A DNA stretch of 64,000 bases from Octopus sinensis (Eukaryota), in the NCBI RefSeq assembly GCF_006345805.1, contig NC_043014.1, positions 8,184,001-8,248,000 on the forward strand, written 5' to 3'. This document shows, piece by piece, positions 4,922-58,089 of the stretch. The translations under genes and the position numbers were made by a program. The stretch's first letter is position 1. Each line of letters starts with the position of its first letter. The notes under the pieces were generated by a model. The model did not search any database. It had not been told where the DNA came from and worked only from the letters and a program-made list of their open reading frames with translations.

Positions 4922-6547
4922 CAGTTGCGGCCAAAATGTTCAGAACGGTATTGTTTTCGTCAGAAAAGTAGGTATAAGTTTTTATCAAAGTTGTTTTATA
5001 TTCTATAATTTTCACAGACAATAAATACGATATTATTTGTTATTGTCTGATATCTTGGTGTAATTTGAGAGGAAAATACAAAAATTATGGATGATTTAGT
5101 GATTTACTGCAAAACCCATGGCGGCCAAAAGGATCAGAACGGTTGCTTTTACTCCGTGTTTTAGTATATTTAACTGGCGAACTCTAATGTTTTGAATTTT
5201 TTTACGTGACGGTTCGTTTACTAAACATTAGTAAGAATATCTGCAGTGTACTTTGTTAATATAATGCCACTTACTCCGTTACCAATTCGTCAGCATATTA
5301 TTAAGCTTCGAAAGAAGGATAATTTAAGTATTGGGTCTATTGCAAAGATTGTTAACAAGTCAAAAAGTGTTGTTCACGGTATTCTTAAGGTCTAAAATGA
5401 TTGTGGTTCGTGTGAAGCAAGAAAGTCTACAGGTAGGCCAAGAAAAACGACCAAGAGAGATCGTGCTATGGTAAAGTTGGTTAAAAAGGACAGATTTAAA
5501 ACTGCTGCTGCTGTTTCTCAGGAAATGAGCATTGTATTGAAGAAAACTTTATCCCGAAAAACTGTGTCTCGTCGTTTAGTTGAACATGACCTACAAGCAA
5601 GAGCACCTGCAGTGAAGCCACTGATCAGCTCCAAAAATAAAAAGTGTCGTCTTACCTTTGCAACCGAACATGTGTTGTGGTCTCAAGAAAAATGGCAAAC
5701 GGTGCTTTTCAGTGATGAATCTAAGTTTATGTTATTTGGCTCAGATGAGAAAAGGTACGTTCGTAGAAAAGTAGGTGAAAAATTGTCACCTAAATGCCTT
5801 AAAACTAGTGTTAAATTCGGTGGAGGAAGTGTCATGGTTTGGGGGATGATATCTGGAGATGGTATGGGCCCTTTGTTGCGATTACATAGAAAGGTAAATG
5901 CAGGAGTTTATAAACAACTTGTAAAAGATCATGTCTTGCCTGTGCTGAGAAATTCAACTAAGCGACCACCCATATTCACGCAGGACAATGCCCCATGTCA
6001 CAAGGCTAAGGCAGTCATGAACTTCCTAAAGGCTGAAAAGGTTATTGTTATGGATTGGCCTGCTCAAAGCCCAGATCTCAATCCTATTGAAAATGTGTGG
6101 AATATTCTAGGAGAACGTTCGAAAGCCAGAAATCCTAAAACAACCGAGCAATTATGGAAAGCCCTTCAGGAAGAATGGAATAAGATCACCCAGCAAGAAA
6201 TTGAAAATTTAATTTCCTCATGCAGTCGAAGATGTCAAAGTGTGATTGAAGCTAAAGGACTTCACACTAAATATTAAATAATTCCAGTATTCTCTGTCAT
6301 TTTTGATTATTTTGTTATTTTTTCAACCGTTCTGATCATTTTGGCCGCCATGGGTTTTGTAGTAAATCACTAAATCATCCATAACTTTTATATTATCCTC
6401 TCAAATTACACTAAAATCTCAGACAATAACAAATAATATTGTATTTATTGTCTGTGAAAATTATAGAATATAAAACAACTTTGATAAAAACTTATACCTA
6501 CTTTTCTGACGAAAACAATACCGTTCTGAACATTTTGGCCGCAATTG
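4922..6547 (+). mobile_element. Full-length Tc1-family (DD34E) transposon, IR/DR type
   Basis: TA at 4920-21 and 6548-49; ~220-bp TIRs starting CAGTTGCGGCCAAAATGTTCAGAACGGT, with an inner direct repeat gcggccaaaaggatcagaacggt. Confidence 0.97.
5264..6277 (+). pseudogene. Tc1 transposase, 337 codons with one premature TAA (5393-5395)
   Basis: MPLTPL..GRPRK..FSDESK..QDNAPCH-(34 aa)-SPDLNPIE; ATG at 5264 is in frame with ORF 5468-6277. Confidence 0.93.
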
Positions 6548-13810: not shown

Positions 13811-13929
<119 letters not shown>

Positions 13930-15011
13930 TTTCGGAATTAGAGATAGATATACAAGAAACAAGCACAGAAAAAGCTAGGCGCATGAAAACCCGTGCCAAA
14001 ACTGCGGCCTTAGATATTCTGAATAATAAATGGCAAGAAAAACCTCTCTATGGCAAATACCCAAAGAGAGCGAATAATGCAGATATCGACAAAGCCCTGA
14101 CCCATCAATGGCTAATGGCCTCTGGCTTAAAATCTGAAACAGAGGGGTTTATCATAGCAGCTCAAGATCAATGCCTACCAACAAGAAACTACCAGGCCAA
14201 CATATTAAAGATCAGAAGCAGTCCAACGTGTCGTGTATGCAAGCAACAAAATCAAACCATTGACCATGTGGTCTCCAAGTGCAGTCTTCTAGCGCCTACA
14301 GAGTATCTCAACAGGCACGATAGAGCTGCACAATATATTCACTGGGTAATCTGTAAAAACCTGGATTTGCCCCATGAAAAAAACTGGTGGGAACACAAAC
14401 CACCCCCAGTGCTTGAAAATGACCACATCTCACTCCTCTGGAACTTCACCATTCAAACTGACAGGAAGATAGATGCAAATAGGCCAGACATCATATTGAA
14501 AAACTTCAAACAAAGAACATGCCTCCTCATTGATATGACTGTCCCAATCGATATAAACGTATCTGTCAAGACCTACCAAAAACTGAGCAAATATAAAGAT
14601 CTTGAAATAGAAATCAGCAAAATGTGGAAGCTGAAGACTAAAACAATACCTGTTGTCATAGGTGCCCTGGGAATGATAGCAAAAGGGGCTTCTAGCTACC
14701 TAACTCAGATACCAGGAAACCCAAAAATGGCAGAAGTTCAAAAGATAGTGCTCATGGGAACTGCTCATATCCTACGCAAAATACTCTCTATGTAATCTCA
14801 AGGTTTAAAACAAACATAATTTTCGGTTTAAAAAAAAAAAAAAAAAAAAACCTTTTTTTTTTAGACATTCATTAGTACAACATCCCCACCCCCCAAATAT
14901 ATGGCACACTAGGCGTAACAACAACATGAACTTCCAACCCTGTTGTCTCTTGAGGTCTCTGGGTGAGACTTGGAGCCAACTTGTACAAATATAAAGCAAA
15001 AGTCAAACATA

Positions 15012-44245: not shown

Positions 44246-44252
44246 TATATAT

Positions 44253-44675
44253 AAGTAAGTGAATGAATTATTCTATGTTTATCGTCAGCATGGAAAATTC
44301 GTTTAACCGAAACCTGGGTAGCAAATTCACGTCAGAAAACACGGTTGAAGCGACCTGACAAGGGTAGAAACTCTGGGTTCATGTGTAGAAATTTGTGTGT
44401 TGTATATGAATAAATGAAAGAATGGAGTCGAACGAAGATGTTAACAAAATTCCTTTACTCTCGACACATTATCGCTTTGTTTACCATGTAGGCAATCATC
44501 GAAACTTTTGTTTGTCTTGTTGTCGAGAGAGGCTCCCTTTCTTTCCTGATGAGGAGATTGCATAATGCACCCTTTATTCCTTTGGAATGAGAACATGCTG
44601 TCTTCGAAACATGTGTCGAGAGTAAAGGAATTTTGTTAACATCTTCGTTCGACTCCATTCTTTCATTTATTCATA
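44253..44675. mobile_element. Fold-back hammerhead element, family H1 copy 1
   Basis: 44405-44470 is inverted at 44610-44675; homologous to 46000-46544 and 46631-46892; (TA)n flanks. Confidence 0.82.
44541..44622 (+). ncRNA. Type-I hammerhead ribozyme motif (GUC)
   Basis: ctttc-CTGATGA-ggaga..tcttc-GAAAC atgt GTC-gagag. Confidence 0.85.
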
Positions 44676-44724
44676 TATATATATATATATAATATATATA
44701 TATATATTATTCATATATATATAT

Positions 44725-45917: not shown

Positions 45918-46002
<85 letters not shown>

Positions 46003-46199
46003 TAAGTAGTTGAATGAATTATTCTAGTATGGATAATTCGGTTAACCGATACCCGGGTAGCAAATTTACGTCAGAAGGCACGGTTGAAGCTACATACCAA
46101 GGGCAGAAATCACGTGCTTTCGTATGGAAATTTGTGTGTTTTTTTACTATAGATAAATGAAAGAATGGAGTCGAACGACGATTTAACAAAATTCCTTTA

Positions 46200-46282
46200 T
46201 TCTCGACATATGTTTCGAAGACTGCATATTCTTAATTCCGAAGGAATAAAGGGTGCATTATGCCGTCTTCTCATCAGGAAAG
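46200..46282 (-). ncRNA. Type-I hammerhead ribozyme motif (GUC)
   Basis: Reverse complement of 46423-46505. Confidence 0.87.
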
Positions 46283-46422
46283 ACAAGGAACTTATGTCAG
46301 CATCATGACGAACAAAAACTTTAAGATGACTGCCCACACGGGGTCCATTGTGATAATGATGCTGACATAAGTTCATAGTGTCATAAGTTCATAGTGTCAT
46401 GATGCTGACATAAGTTCCTTGT

Positions 46423-46505
46423 CTTTCCTGATGAGAAGACGGCATAATGCACCCTTTATTCCTTCGGAATTAAGAATATGCAGTCTTCGAAACATATGTC
46501 GAGAA
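46423..46505 (+). ncRNA. Type-I hammerhead ribozyme motif (GUC)
   Basis: tttc-CTGATGA-gaagacggcata..tatgcagtcttc-GAAAC atat GTC-gaga; palindromic ACATATGT stem III. Confidence 0.88.
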
Positions 46506-46546
46506 TAAAGGAATTTTGTTAAATCGTCGTTCGACTCCATTCTTAT

Positions 46547-46630
<84 letters not shown>

Positions 46631-46633
<3 letters not shown>

Positions 46634-46888
46634 GGATGAATGAATTATCCATTGTTTACCGTTAACATGGAAAATTCAATAAACAGTTATCAGGTTAGCA
46701 AAATTCACGCAAGTAACAAGGATGTAGCGACCTATTCAAAGGTAGAAACTCTGGGTTAATGTGCAGTAATTTGTGTAGTGTAAGTAAATAAATGCAGTTG
46801 AACGCAGAATAAGACCAATGTTGTCTTCGAAACATATGTCGAAAGTAAAAGAATTTGAATAGCATCTGCGTTCAACTCCATTTATTTA

Positions 46889-47176: not shown

Positions 47177-48089
47177 TGTGATTTCAGAGAGATTTAGCTG
47201 CTGTTTCTAGCAGACAGAGGCTACCTCGTTGGCACGGTCTATTACTGTTGAAGTCTTGTAAGCGATTTATCCTTCTTTACTTAAAACGGTATTCTGTGAT
47301 TTCAAAGAGATTTAGCTGCTGTTTCTAGCAGACATGCTACCTCGTAGGCACGGTCTATTACTGTTGAAGTCTTGTTAACGATTTATCCTTCTTTAGTTAA
47401 AACGGTATTCTGTGATTTCAGAGAGATTTAGCAGCTGTTTCTAGCAGACATGCTACCTCGTAGGCACGGTCTATTACTGTTGAAGTCTTGTTAACGATTT
47501 ATCCTTCTTTAGTTAAAACGGTATTCTGTGATTTCAGAGAGATTTAGCTGCTGTTTCTAGCAGACAGAGGCTACCTCGTTGGCACGTTCTATTACTGTTG
47601 AGGTCTTGTTTGCGATTTATCCTTCTTTACTTAAAACGGTATTCTGTGATTTCAAAGAGATTTAGCTGCTGTTTCTAGCAGACATGCTACCTCGTAGGCA
47701 CGGTCTATTACTGTTGAAGTCTTGTTAACGATTTATCCTTCTTTAGTTAAAACGGTATTCTGTGATTTCAGAGAGATTTAGCTGCTGTTTCTAGCAGACA
47801 GAGGCTACCTCGTTGGCACGTTCTATTACTGTTGAGGTCTTGTTTGCGATTTATCCTTCTTTACTTAAAACGGTATTCTGTGATTTCAGAGAGATTTAGC
47901 AGCTGTTTCTAGCAGACATGCTACCTCATAGGCACATTCTATTACTGTTGAAGTCTTGTTAGCGATTTATCCTTCTTTACTTAAAACGGTATTCTGTGAT
48001 TTCAAAGAGATGTAGCTGCTGTTTCTAGCAGACAGAGGCTACCTCGTTGGCACTTTCTTTTACTGTTGAGGTCTTGTTTGCGATTTATC
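47177..48089 (+). repeat. 116/118-bp tandem satellite, ~8 units
   Basis: Unit starts at 47177, 47295, 47411, 47527, 47645, 47761, 47879, 47995. Confidence 0.95.
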
Positions 48090-51667: not shown

Positions 51668-52160
51668 TATACACACGTCCATATGCGCGCATACACACAC
51701 ACACACACGGATACGTGAAACGCACATCACTCCACACAGTGCACACACTAAGTTACTTATACACATACACACACACACACTCCCATATGCATACACAATC
51801 CCAGATAATTTTAAGCTCGCCCATACATTTACATGCGCTCACTCCCTTTCACACAAATACACTCATCCTTCTTAGATACACACGCGTTTGTGCACCCTAG
51901 TTCAGCTGGGTCACCGTTATTTTCTCCCTTTCACTCTACATTTTTCTTCCGATCATTTCATCATGTTGAACTTATTAATCCCTACACCTTTTTTTCTCTC
52001 CCTTTTTTTTTTCTTTTTGTTCTCACTCCATTTTTTTCCTCTTAACATTTACTGTCGAAGAGTGTAGGCTCGAAACTTTTCCGTTCTTCCGGAGAGTCAA
52101 ACTAATACACCTTCTCGTAGTTCTCTCACATGCCTTCGTCTTTTGTTTTCAGTAAAATTG

Positions 52161-52219
<59 letters not shown>

Positions 52220-54179: not shown

Positions 54180-56610
54180 GCGTAAATACCTCGACCGTGT
54201 CCTTGCCCCCCTAGTGGCATCTCTTCCCTCCCACATCCACGATACCAACCATGCTCTCCGGCTTTTCAACTCTTTCTCTTTTCCTCCCGGCTCCTCCAAA
54301 TCCTCCTTTTTACTATGGACATCCAAGCCTCTATACTGTTATCCCCACCACGAAGGACTGCAGGCCCTTCGACACTTTCTTGACCTCCGTCTAAACCCTG
54401 TCCTGACACCTCCACACTCATTCGTCTGCCGAACTTGTCCTTTCTGAACTGCTTCTCGTTCGCGGGCGAGTTCTACCATCAGGTCTCGGGAGTGGCCATG
54501 GGAACGCGAATGGGCCCCAACTATGCGAACCTGTTCGTTGGCTATGTTGAGCCCAAATATTCTCTAATTTCACTGTCCCACTCCTGAACGATATGGTCGT
54601 TACATTGACGACATTATCGGTGCCACCTCACTCGCCGTGAACATCTAGATTCCTTCTCCTCTTTCGTCCAATCTTCCATCCAGCCTCCACTTCACTCCAC
54701 TATCTCCAACACCTCTGTCTCCTTCCTCGACATTTCGGTTAGCATTTTCACTCCACTCTTACCACCTCCATCACTACAAACACACAGACTCACACTCATA
54801 CCTCAACTTCTCTTCCTCCCACCCAGAACACACCAAGCTTTCCATCCCCTATTCCCAATTCCTCCGTCTACGTAGGCTCTGTAGTGACGACCATGACTTT
54901 GAGACTCAGTCTCAACGTATGGCTCACCACTTCACCCTACGTGGATAACCCTCCACTATCCACACCGCCCTTGCCAGAGCACGGTCCGTGGACCGTGTAT
55001 CTGCTCTCTCTCCCCGAACCCGCCCTGTATTCTCCCGCCTCCCTTTTCCCCTCACTTACCACCCCACGACCCTACGTCTCCAACGCACCATTCTTCGAGC
55101 TTCCGTCATCTCCGTCCGACCCGTCCACTTCACACCTCTTCCCTAACCGACCCCTCCCCTCTTTAAAACGAGCCCACACCTTCGAGACCTTTTGGTCCAT
55201 AGCTCCTTCCTGACCCTACTCCAACACCGGCTCGTTCCCCTGCTCCCGCCCACATTGCTGCACTTGCCCTTACCTCTCCAACACCACCCGCCTCACTAGC
55301 ACCCACCATCGACCCTATCCCATCATCCACTCCTTCACCTGCACCTCCAGCAATATTATCTATTGCGTCTCTTGCTCTCTCTGCAATTCCTTGTACATCG
55401 GACAAACGGGACGCCGCTTGGCTGACCGGTTCGCGGAACACCTTCGTGACATCCACCTTGCGAACGAACACCGGTCTCACGCCATTTCCGCTCCACCGGT
55501 CACTCCTTGCAACACCTATCTGTGTTCGGTTTGTCCTTACACAGAGGCCATCCGGATTCCGTTTGCCGCGCGCCGTGAACAGGAATTAATCTTCTCTCTT
55601 CGCTCTTTTATACGCCATTTGGTCTCACTCTCTCCCCCCCCTCCTCATCAACCCCCCTCTCCCCTCCTCACCTATCCTTCCCCCCGACCCCTACTTCTTC
55701 AGTCCTTCATCCTTTCACCCCTACTCCCCTTCCCTCTTCCCCTCCTCCTTCCTCTGCTCCCTCACTCCCTTCTCTCTCCCCTCCCCCTCTTTCCTCTTTC
55801 CTCCTTCCTCCCCCTCCTCCTCCCCTTCCTTCTCCCCTCCTCTCCTCTTCCCCCCTCCCTCTCCTCTCCCCCTCCCCCCCTCTTCTTCCCCTCCCCTTCT
55901 CCCCTCTTCTCCCCTCCCCCTCTTCTCCTCACTACACCACACGACTTTACACATCACATCATATATGATGTGCCATACTAATACATACACCAACTAATAC
56001 ATACTAATACGTACTAATACATACTAATAACTACTAATACATACACCAACCCTATACAACACACGTCCAGACCCCATACGCACTTATACTCTCTCATACC
56101 ACACACACACACTTATACATACTAATACGTACTAATACATACTAATACATACTAATACATACACCAACCCCATACATACGCCTGTCCAGACCTATCCTAC
56201 GCACTAATACTCTCTCATACACACACACACACACACCCTTATACATACTAATACATACACCAACCCTATACATACACACGTCCAGGCCCCTCCTACGCAC
56301 TAATAGGTGGTCATTCAACCCTGTTATCAACCCTATTATCTCCCCTTATTTCGCTCTTGCGTCTCATGTTTGATCTTTGACTTCTGGCCGAAATCAGATC
56401 GCCATGTTGATTCGTTAGTTACTGCACGCATTTTTTTTCTCTCCTTCTTTCTGTGTTTTTTTTCTCTCTGTGTATCTTTCTGTTGAAGAGCGTAGGCTCG
56501 AAACGTTAAAGCATTGTTTTATTTATATTTCCTGAGCGCCATACTAATACAATTGTTTGTTTGTTTTCCACCTGCCTTCGTCTTTTGTCTATTTTCATAA
56601 AGCTTCCCGT

Positions 56611-56611
<1 letters not shown>
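54180..56611 (+). mobile_element. 5'-truncated Penelope-like retroelement (RT plus GIY-YIG, Neptune-like Cys linker), frameshifted
   Basis: GVAMGTRMGPNYANLF, RYIDDI, FLDI, IPYSQFLRLRRLCS, CxxxxCCxC, IIYCVSC..LYIGQTGR..RFAEH; ends at (TA)n. Confidence 0.92.
56476..56511 (+). ncRNA. Variant minimal hammerhead in a Penelope pLTR (CUGUUGA core)
   Basis: cttt-CTGTTGA-a-gagc gtag gctc-GAAACGTT-aaag; sister motif CTGTCGA at 52052-52076. Confidence 0.55.
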
Positions 56612-56664
<53 letters not shown>

Positions 56665-56673
<9 letters not shown>

Positions 56674-57083
56674 GTCAAATGCGATACAATAAAAATTATT
56701 ATTATCGCCGGTGTTCTAGTACACGCCATATATTATTCATATATAAGTACATAAAAGGCGAAGTGTGTACTAGATACACAAAAGCTGGATAAATTTAATG
56801 AGATGAAAATTAAAAACTTTTACAAACTTAGTTCTTCTTATACTGCAGTTTCGCCTATTTCAGCAATAAAAATAATATTTATTTACTCAGGTAGGCTCTT
56901 CAGTAAGATTCCTGTTATTATGGGAAGCGCACATCAATAGAGGCACGTGCGTCTATTAAATTGCTCTTTCTAAACTATTCAAATCACTGCGCAGACTCAG
57001 AACGTACCCGACAAAATAGGGTTTTATGGTATATCGTCTAACGCTCAAAAATTTATCGAGAAAATACGTAAACAAAGTCAAAT
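56665..57083 (-). mobile_element. ORF-less 403-bp terminally redundant hammerhead element (retrozyme-like)
   Basis: gtaaacaaagtcaaat at 56665 and 57068; (TA)n on both sides; internal hammerhead. Confidence 0.8.
56836..56908 (-). ncRNA. Type-I hammerhead ribozyme motif (GUA)
   Basis: tctta-CTGAAGA-gccta..taggc-GAAAC tgca GTA-taaga; stem I and the base of stem II pair perfectly, palindromic stem III. Confidence 0.9.
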
Positions 57084-57119
57084 ATATATATATATATACA
57101 AACATACATACATATATAT

Positions 57120-57458: not shown

Positions 57459-57659
57459 ATACACATATATATATACATATATATATACATATACGTAAAA
57501 TATGGGGTAGCGAGTTTATTTTAGAAATTTCACTACCAGTGGCCTAGCAGATATAAAAAGTCAATAGACAACATATTCTCAATATAAAATAGTGTACATT
57601 TAAACACAAGCGAAACTGCCTTCAACAGGCAGTTTTACACGCTAGAAGAAGTAGTCAAA

Positions 57660-58060
57660 ACGACCAAACGTTCTTCGCAGTGGTTGGACCAAAATGAAGC
57701 TCCGAAAACCTTCCCTAAATCCAAGCTCTTCAAAAAGAAAGTTATGATGACTGTTTGGTGGTGTACTGCTGGATTCATCCACTATAACGTCTTAAAACCC
57801 GGAAAAACCATTACAGCAGGAAAATATTGCCATGAAATTGCCAAAATGAAAGAAAAACTACTACTCCTCCGTCCCAGACTGGTCAATAGAAGAGGGCCAA
57901 TCTTTCTTCATTACAATGCTCGACCACACGTTTCGCTAATGACGCTCCAGAAGATGAAGGAACTTGGCTACGAAGTTCTTTCCCACCTAGCTTATTCCCT
58001 AGACTACCACTTTTTCAAGCACCTTGATGGTTTCGTGCGAGAGAAGGAGTTCAAAAGTCT
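57660..58060 (+). pseudogene. Mariner transposase fragment
   Basis: KKVMMTVWW..G.TIT..KY..LHYNARPH..DYHFF; no TIRs seen. Confidence 0.85.
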
Positions 58061-58089
58061 TCCATAGTCTTCTTTAATCATTTCACCAA

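Follow-up and report, generated by a model that had tools for sequence, protein, structure and literature searches.

A dispersed 403-nt hammerhead repeat is a non-LTR retrozyme likely inserted at TA microsatellites by a Penelope-like enzyme copying a predicted circular RNA

The 403-nt repeat described here, one copy of which lies at positions 56665..57083 of the window (the whole 64-kb stretch of DNA analysed), is a dispersed non-LTR retrozyme whose insertions were likely made at a TA microsatellite by a Penelope-like enzyme copying a predicted circular RNA. The anatomy of the copies leaves little doubt that the family is a real and young non-LTR retrozyme family; its mobilisation at (TA)n was very likely carried out by a Penelope-type enzyme, the putative partner, and a circular template, itself predicted, is the best reading of the insertions, in which we place moderate confidence. 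The preliminary description had proposed a candidate retrozyme, and this is borne out by a dispersed hammerhead family with tandem units and a fixed 3' end at (TA)n. This kind of element is already known; what is new is this family, its mechanistic detail and the test system that it offers.

The window copy belongs to subfamily A, lies on the minus strand and is 419 nt long (1.04 units), with its 5' end at 57083 and its fixed 3' end at 56665. It comprises one full unit (56665..57067, 403 nt, GC ~33%), which no ORF of at least 120 aa overlaps, in agreement with the ORF-less monomer first reported, and a 16-nt overshoot (57068..57083) corresponding to the last 16 nt of the preceding unit. The terminus at 56665..56683 is the fixed 3' terminus of the 403-nt family, 176 nt past the predicted ribozyme cut, and the putative internal start site of reverse transcription. 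TA tracts adjoin the copy at its 3' end (56610..56664, common to a neighbouring Penelope-like element and presumably the target) and at its 5' end (57084..57099). The window has exactly two occurrences of GTAAACAAAGTCAAAT, one at 56665 and one at 57068, with a period of 403 and no further extension of the repeat, so that the 16-bp direct repeat said to bound 403 bp between TA tracts is indeed present. At 419 nt the copy reaches into a second unit, whose tail is the 16-bp repeat. A terminally redundant monomer as a defined form did not survive the comparison of copies, 403+16 nt being just one of the lengths, between 20 and 1463 nt, at which copies with the fixed 3' end occur, and the suggestion that the 16-mer might be a host target-site duplication was ruled out, since it is element sequence, the overshoot of a 1.04-unit copy. 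Target-site duplications are illegible in the 403-nt family, the flanks on both sides being mostly (TA)n.

When both strands of the 64 kb were scanned with a hammerhead descriptor, four matches resulted, one of them inside the 403-nt copy on the minus strand, where the preliminary description had placed a mid-unit hammerhead with its GUA near 56841. The motif is of type I (56836..56908): stem I has 5 bp (56908-56904/56840-56836) and is followed by CUGAAGA (56903-56897), stem II has 5 bp with a long loop (56896-56892/56857-56853) and is followed by GAAA (56852-56849), and stem III, of 2 bp, closes a palindromic UGCA tetraloop, the predicted cut falling after GUA, between 56841 and 56840. Its 12 base pairs are all kept in 6/6 distinct rows of the alignment, from three subfamilies. 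In Rfam the hammerhead of the 403-nt unit went undetected, both at the gathering threshold and at E<=10, and an exact hammerhead pattern matched the genome 60 times, compared with 0 times for its reversed control. Differences between subfamilies A and C within the 73-nt ribozyme were 0/35 (P 0.0007, for a window chosen knowing the ribozyme's place) and those between A and B were 6/34, with no depletion. The six ribozyme changes of subfamily B spare the core and keep stem II, through one compensatory change from U-A to A-U and one wobble; this covariation is a single event, reached by 34/500 shuffles. Variable columns in the ribozyme numbered 6/60 (P 0.035) and in the core alone 0/12 (P 0.13). 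By these comparisons the putative ribozyme is conserved between subfamilies, and its activity is predicted. When folded, monomer circles (n=6) were 58-63% paired, with z of -0.8 to -3.3 against shuffles, a modest gain, and strand-specific stability was absent in these six monomers, the antisense strand folding equally well.

Copies of the unit are dispersed across many contigs, at more than 100 loci in the 2.72 Gb of genome searched, and all locus counts given here are lower bounds. A BLAST-type search of the same genome yielded at least 76 matches at 85-100% identity, with 40 of 831 candidates scored; the tandem or differently permuted copies that the preliminary description had suggested looking for exist as tandem, differently truncated ones. 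A 19-mer from the 3' end, allowing at most one mismatch, had 142 genome matches against 1 for the control (100 listed, with 42 one-mismatch ends unlisted), and two variant 3' ends had 40 and 35 matches, the latter overlapping the set of 142. The main set consists of 86 non-redundant aligned loci, that is, 89 rows less three (L068, which duplicates the locus of L006; an AT-rich chance match of 33 nt in L052; and a second row of L004, which was kept only in the count of unit-length rows, where n is therefore 87), to which 30 further loci were added (116 in all). L218 and L287 had no alignable piece, and three late loci outside the counts (L284-L286) all have the fixed end and TA. The units, of 400-405 nt and 32-35% GC, fall into three subfamilies (A, B and C), about 9-14% apart, and stand head-to-tail with 0.05-3.6 units per locus. 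Parts of the unit turn up in contigs assembled from runs whose records do not give RNA as the source, and this has no bearing on expression either way.

The insertions have a polarised anatomy. The 3' end, on the hammerhead strand, is fixed at unit position 390-403 in 83/86 loci and in 29/30 further loci, the three exceptions among the former ending at an assembly gap or inside a unit and the single exception among the latter at a gap. A (TA)4 follows within 30 nt of the 3' end, again in 83/86 and 29/30 loci, and 68/86 have a (TA)3 no more than 20 nt from the 5' end. The 5' ends are spread round the whole unit, and 44 of 83 copies, whose lengths cover the range given above, are longer than one unit; in the set collected by the exact 3'-end pattern, which is neutral with respect to length, 29 of 58 are. 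Inverted 5' pieces were absent from the 403-nt family among the 116 loci. The copies match Penelope-mobilised elements in four traits: the 3' end is fixed at an internal site, the 5' end is truncated, the tandems are partial and the target is a microsatellite. This anatomy makes it very improbable that the repeat is a satellite or minisatellite whose unit multiplied in place by unequal crossover and was dispersed as DNA: tandem units within one locus are indeed alike, local amplification has been proposed for vertebrate arrays (10.64898/2026.07.22.740005) and L004 is a local duplication together with its flanks, but the copies are dispersed on many contigs, short, polarised (3' fixed, 5' variable) and targeted to TA, and 45/87 rows are shorter than one unit.

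The position of the fixed end relative to the ribozyme bears on the template. The end lies 176 nt past the predicted cut, and of the 62 copies with the length to extend that far, only one ends within 6 nt of the cleavage site. Where copies cross the cleavage junction, 77/84 crossings read as one of three subfamily-type strings and one carries an insertion. The scarcity of ends near the cut and the seamless crossings argue that the template was continuous at the cleavage site. A cut linear monomer was rejected as template, since it would stop copies at 176 nt. At internal junctions, the sequence continues past the end position as C(G/A)TAT in 50/51 cases; the resemblance of this string to TATATA would fit priming by a nicked TA tract. 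Many copies of 20-30 nt, and short overshoots, start at unit positions 374-384, a T/A-rich spot by the 3' end, and this shared start suggests early termination or microhomology with the TA target.

A continuous template could also be linear. In this alternative, the main rival, to which we give a lesser but real chance, the repeat is a non-autonomous Penelope derivative whose copies were made from uncut multimeric transcripts (or through template jumps), with reverse transcription by the Penelope RT starting internally and running back through head-to-tail units, the ribozyme being slow, protein-dependent or otherwise used and no circle being needed. Copying of this kind would likewise give a seamless junction and a 3' end that is fixed while the 5' end varies; the scheme derives from experiments in vitro on anole Poseidon (PMC11167929), and it agrees with the absence of a pile-up of 5' ends at one full turn (11/41, p 0.31). 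The source arrays, however, must then exceed their daughters, and the longest array found has 3.6 units; moreover, no shared 5' flank was seen at a shared truncation point, and the hammerhead is full-sized rather than minimal and conserved between subfamilies.

The composition of the arrays bears on the same question, as the units in one locus are mostly of one haplotype. Within subfamily A, units differ at 1.4 positions per 100 nt within a locus against 2.8 between loci, and markers agree in 47/72 comparisons within loci against 1644/11322 between loci, a value as high being reached in 0/2000 permutations. Markers are uniform in 29/34 cases in subfamily A and 8/11 in C, and in only 4/9 in B. 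Four private variants fill all covering units of their own locus (two in L009, one each in L020 and L031), and, out of a total of seven private shared variants, three occupy no more than 2 of 3 units. New variants are array-wide at most loci, which calls for a single-unit bottleneck and so counts against uncut multimers; the array of L039, a mosaic of two haplotypes, speaks in favour of such multimers. The likeness of neighbouring units could also come from gene conversion, local duplication or assembly polishing.

The preferred reading, copying of a ribozyme-made circle by a Penelope-type enzyme, can be set out in steps. A locus with at least two hammerheads would be transcribed, self-cleavage would give unit-length RNA, and a host ligase would close it into a circle. 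The GIY-YIG and RT activities of a Penelope would then nick (TA)n and prime on it at the internal site that lies 176 nt beyond the cut; the end itself is observed there, and the unit reads UAC(G/A)UAU, close to UAUAUA. Synthesis would cross the cleavage junction and its own start and halt anywhere, giving the observed pattern of 0.05-3.6 units. Only copies of at least about 1.6 units would hold two ribozymes and could seed new circles. Two or more intact hammerheads are present in 11 of the 86 loci, one in 44 and none in 31. The window copy, which would have halted 16 nt past one turn, has one hammerhead and so could not itself free a unit-length RNA or circle; it would be a dead end. In its widest form, on which we are evenly divided, the proposal is that the insertions record the work of a Penelope enzyme performing target-primed, rolling-circle reverse transcription on an RNA circle produced by the ribozyme, in which one UA-like site pairs with nicked (TA)n and an array is one circle copied 0.05-3.6 times, and that several unrelated hammerhead families (403, ~505 and others) and coding Penelopes obey the same rule. 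The ribozyme would then persist because a copy can multiply only if it has two, and the common rule would offer a convenient means of deciding whether RNA circles are the route by which Penelope-type elements move.

A Penelope-like element lies beside the window copy (54183..56609, plus strand); it is 5'-truncated and broken, has a CX4CxxC before the GIY-YIG (Neptune/Nematis-type) and carries a minimal hammerhead at 56483-56507. The distance of about 55 bp from its 3' end given in the preliminary description is right (55 nt), although the retrozyme does not follow it in the same direction: the Penelope is on the opposite strand, and the two are separate insertions arranged tail-to-tail. The 403-nt unit as part of this Penelope was discarded on the grounds of the opposite strand and of an alignment score of 24 against a shuffled mean of 25. 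A likeness between the unit junction and the Penelope tail is insignificant, 16-192 of 300 shuffles being as high, and a profile search of the unit against the tail was negative for A and B and gave 2.6 bits for C. Their closeness is best explained by the common TA target. A further Penelope-type 3' end, followed by (TA)n, is found in the window at 52087-52165 and is 73% like 56529-56588.

The neighbour's family is young, with open frames of up to 746 aa that contain RT and GIY-YIG domains, and at one locus a whole 4401-nt unit stands between two minimal hammerheads; its junction reads CCCG-TTATATA-TTATG, and the family's copies end at that TA run, an internal site. A second young coding Penelope-like family (L283, L288-L317), with top matches at 96-99% protein identity and frames to ~790 aa, has two alternative 3' ends ~45 nt apart, both in (TA)n, which resemble the 'tail' of anole Poseidon, and inverted copies. 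Both families have CX4CxxC ahead of the GIY-YIG, a mark of Neptune and Nematis (10.1101/2021.04.23.441226). Since these coding families also end in (TA)n at internal sites, the retrozyme obeys the same end rule, and the neighbour's family is one candidate supplier of the enzyme.

Such resemblances raise the question of whether the unit is the pseudo-LTR (pLTR), that is, the 3' end, of a long coding Penelope-like element whose copies are 5'-truncated, as the preliminary description had foreseen when it asked whether all copies are the ends of one. No copy analysed is. Beyond one unit the copies repeat their own sequence, never an ORF, and none is joined to coding sequence; the flanks shared at the boundary are other common repeats, at different truncation points. 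In a tblastn search of the 5' flanks against Penelope proteins, 115/117 had no match, and the two same-strand matches are separate elements with their own TA tracts, ending 600-800 nt upstream of the match end. The unit likewise had no significant similarity to the tails of the two coding Penelope families compared. In favour of a pLTR are the ends of the coding families here, in which a hammerhead also lies upstream of a fixed 3' end abutting TA, and one 37-nt end piece after a same-strand coding element (L136/L283); in addition, only 40/831 BLAST candidates were scored and 42 one-mismatch ends were unlisted. L136 was rejected as the coding parent, as the 37-nt piece is on only 1/27 ends of that coding family. 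We consider the coding-pLTR reading largely refuted and, as an account of the present copies, very improbable; descent from the pLTR of an extinct or unsampled Penelope is possible.

The family compares closely with the animal non-LTR retrozymes, for which circular RNAs and cleavage were reported in coral, mussel and axolotl and Penelope-like RTs were proposed as movers (PMC7229834). As in those, the unit is non-coding, of low GC (<50%), head-to-tail and a few hundred bases long, each unit carries a single type I hammerhead whose stem III has 2 bp and a palindromic tetraloop, and autonomous Penelope-like elements are found in the host genome. The similarity in size to animal monomers noted at first holds, 400-405 nt being within the range of 150-450 bp; reported units are 220-245 nt in coral, 330/350 nt in axolotl and 350-390 nt in mussel (Cervera and de la Pena 2020, PMC7229834). 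The 403-nt family differs in its low copy number (~100-200 loci found), arrays of at most 3.6 units, single fixed 3' end and strict (TA)n targeting, and it is known from sequence, whereas circles and cleavage were demonstrated in coral, mussel and axolotl. A plant LTR retrozyme, with type III hammerheads in two LTRs, a unique core and a 4-bp TSD, was ruled out by the type I motif and the simple tandem units.

Vertebrate non-LTR retrozymes are described as derived from Penelope pLTRs, with arrays formed by local amplification and cleavage in one of nine dimers assayed (Li, Clavereau, Pollet, bioRxiv 10.64898/2026.07.22.740005). They share with the present family the occurrence as monomers, dimers and multimers alongside Penelope-like elements; however, 24/57 Xenopus families there match known repeats, nearly all Penelope-like ends, whereas no parent was found for the 403-nt family, and its copies look made at insertion rather than by local amplification.

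With endonuclease-positive Penelope-like elements of the Neptune/Nematis type the family shares partial tandems, an internal fixed RT start downstream of the hammerhead and AT-rich or microsatellite targets (PMC11167929; 10.1101/2021.04.23.441226), and it differs from them in having no ORF, a full-sized rather than minimal hammerhead, one end site, no 30-45-nt tail and, over the 116 loci, no inverted 5' pieces. Non-autonomous Chlamys elements such as MRC1 are described as generally sharing 3' sequence with an autonomous family and mostly being without a hammerhead (10.1101/2021.04.23.441226). Circular templates have been proposed for Penelope tandems (PMC4209133), and hammerhead-free Naiad/Chlamys elements also form partial tandems with one fixed end (10.1101/2021.04.23.441226). 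In vitro, the anole Poseidon PAc starts reverse transcription internally on RNA after cutting AT-rich DNA; hammerhead mutants of the element insert normally and unprocessed RNA is the main substrate (PMC11167929). Two routes have been proposed for the spread of animal retrozymes, reverse transcription of circles by Penelope-like enzymes and local amplification of pLTR remnants, and the finding that the ribozyme was dispensable for one Penelope in vitro bears on this question. Because the 403-nt family has readable ends at more than 100 loci, a defined start and target, source-type loci with at least two ribozymes and young coding Penelopes in the same genome, these alternatives are directly testable. 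In a partial library of the literature, no report of this family or of fixed-end, TA-targeted retrozyme insertions was found.

Other hammerhead repeats were also observed. A relaxed hammerhead pattern found other families and no homolog of the 403-nt unit. One of these, a second family of retrozyme-like character (L160, L161, L168, L172, L211-L214; e.g. G000:C1:149303868-149306420), has a unit of ~505 nt with a type I hammerhead; its arrays, of up to ~3.7 direct units, terminate in (TA)n at an internal TATATA, and in many the 5' portion is inverted. Apart from the ribozyme, it shows no homology to the 403-nt unit. A third hammerhead family, which is abundant (L149-L174, e.g. L156:1250-1760), has a short stem II, TA flanks, often inverted pieces and a repeat period of ~350 nt in L156; this family and the 505-nt one account for the majority of those listed among 602 matches to the pattern. 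L138, L146, L147 and L148 represent another hammerhead family ending in (TA)n, with a tail homologous to that of the 505-nt family (z 8-11). Within the window, 44250-44680 and 45990-46880 contain three type I hammerheads (44546 and 46428 on the plus strand, 46277 on the minus strand) of a TA-flanked family with inverted or rearranged pieces, and degenerate pieces lie further on. A tandem repeat with a period of ~117 bp and 93-95% identity occupies 47177-48000, and a Mariner-type transposase fragment (PF01359), a Tc1-type transposase (PF01498, PF13358) and a weak zf-RVT match were detected at 57588-58067, 5396-6277 and 13929-14795, respectively.
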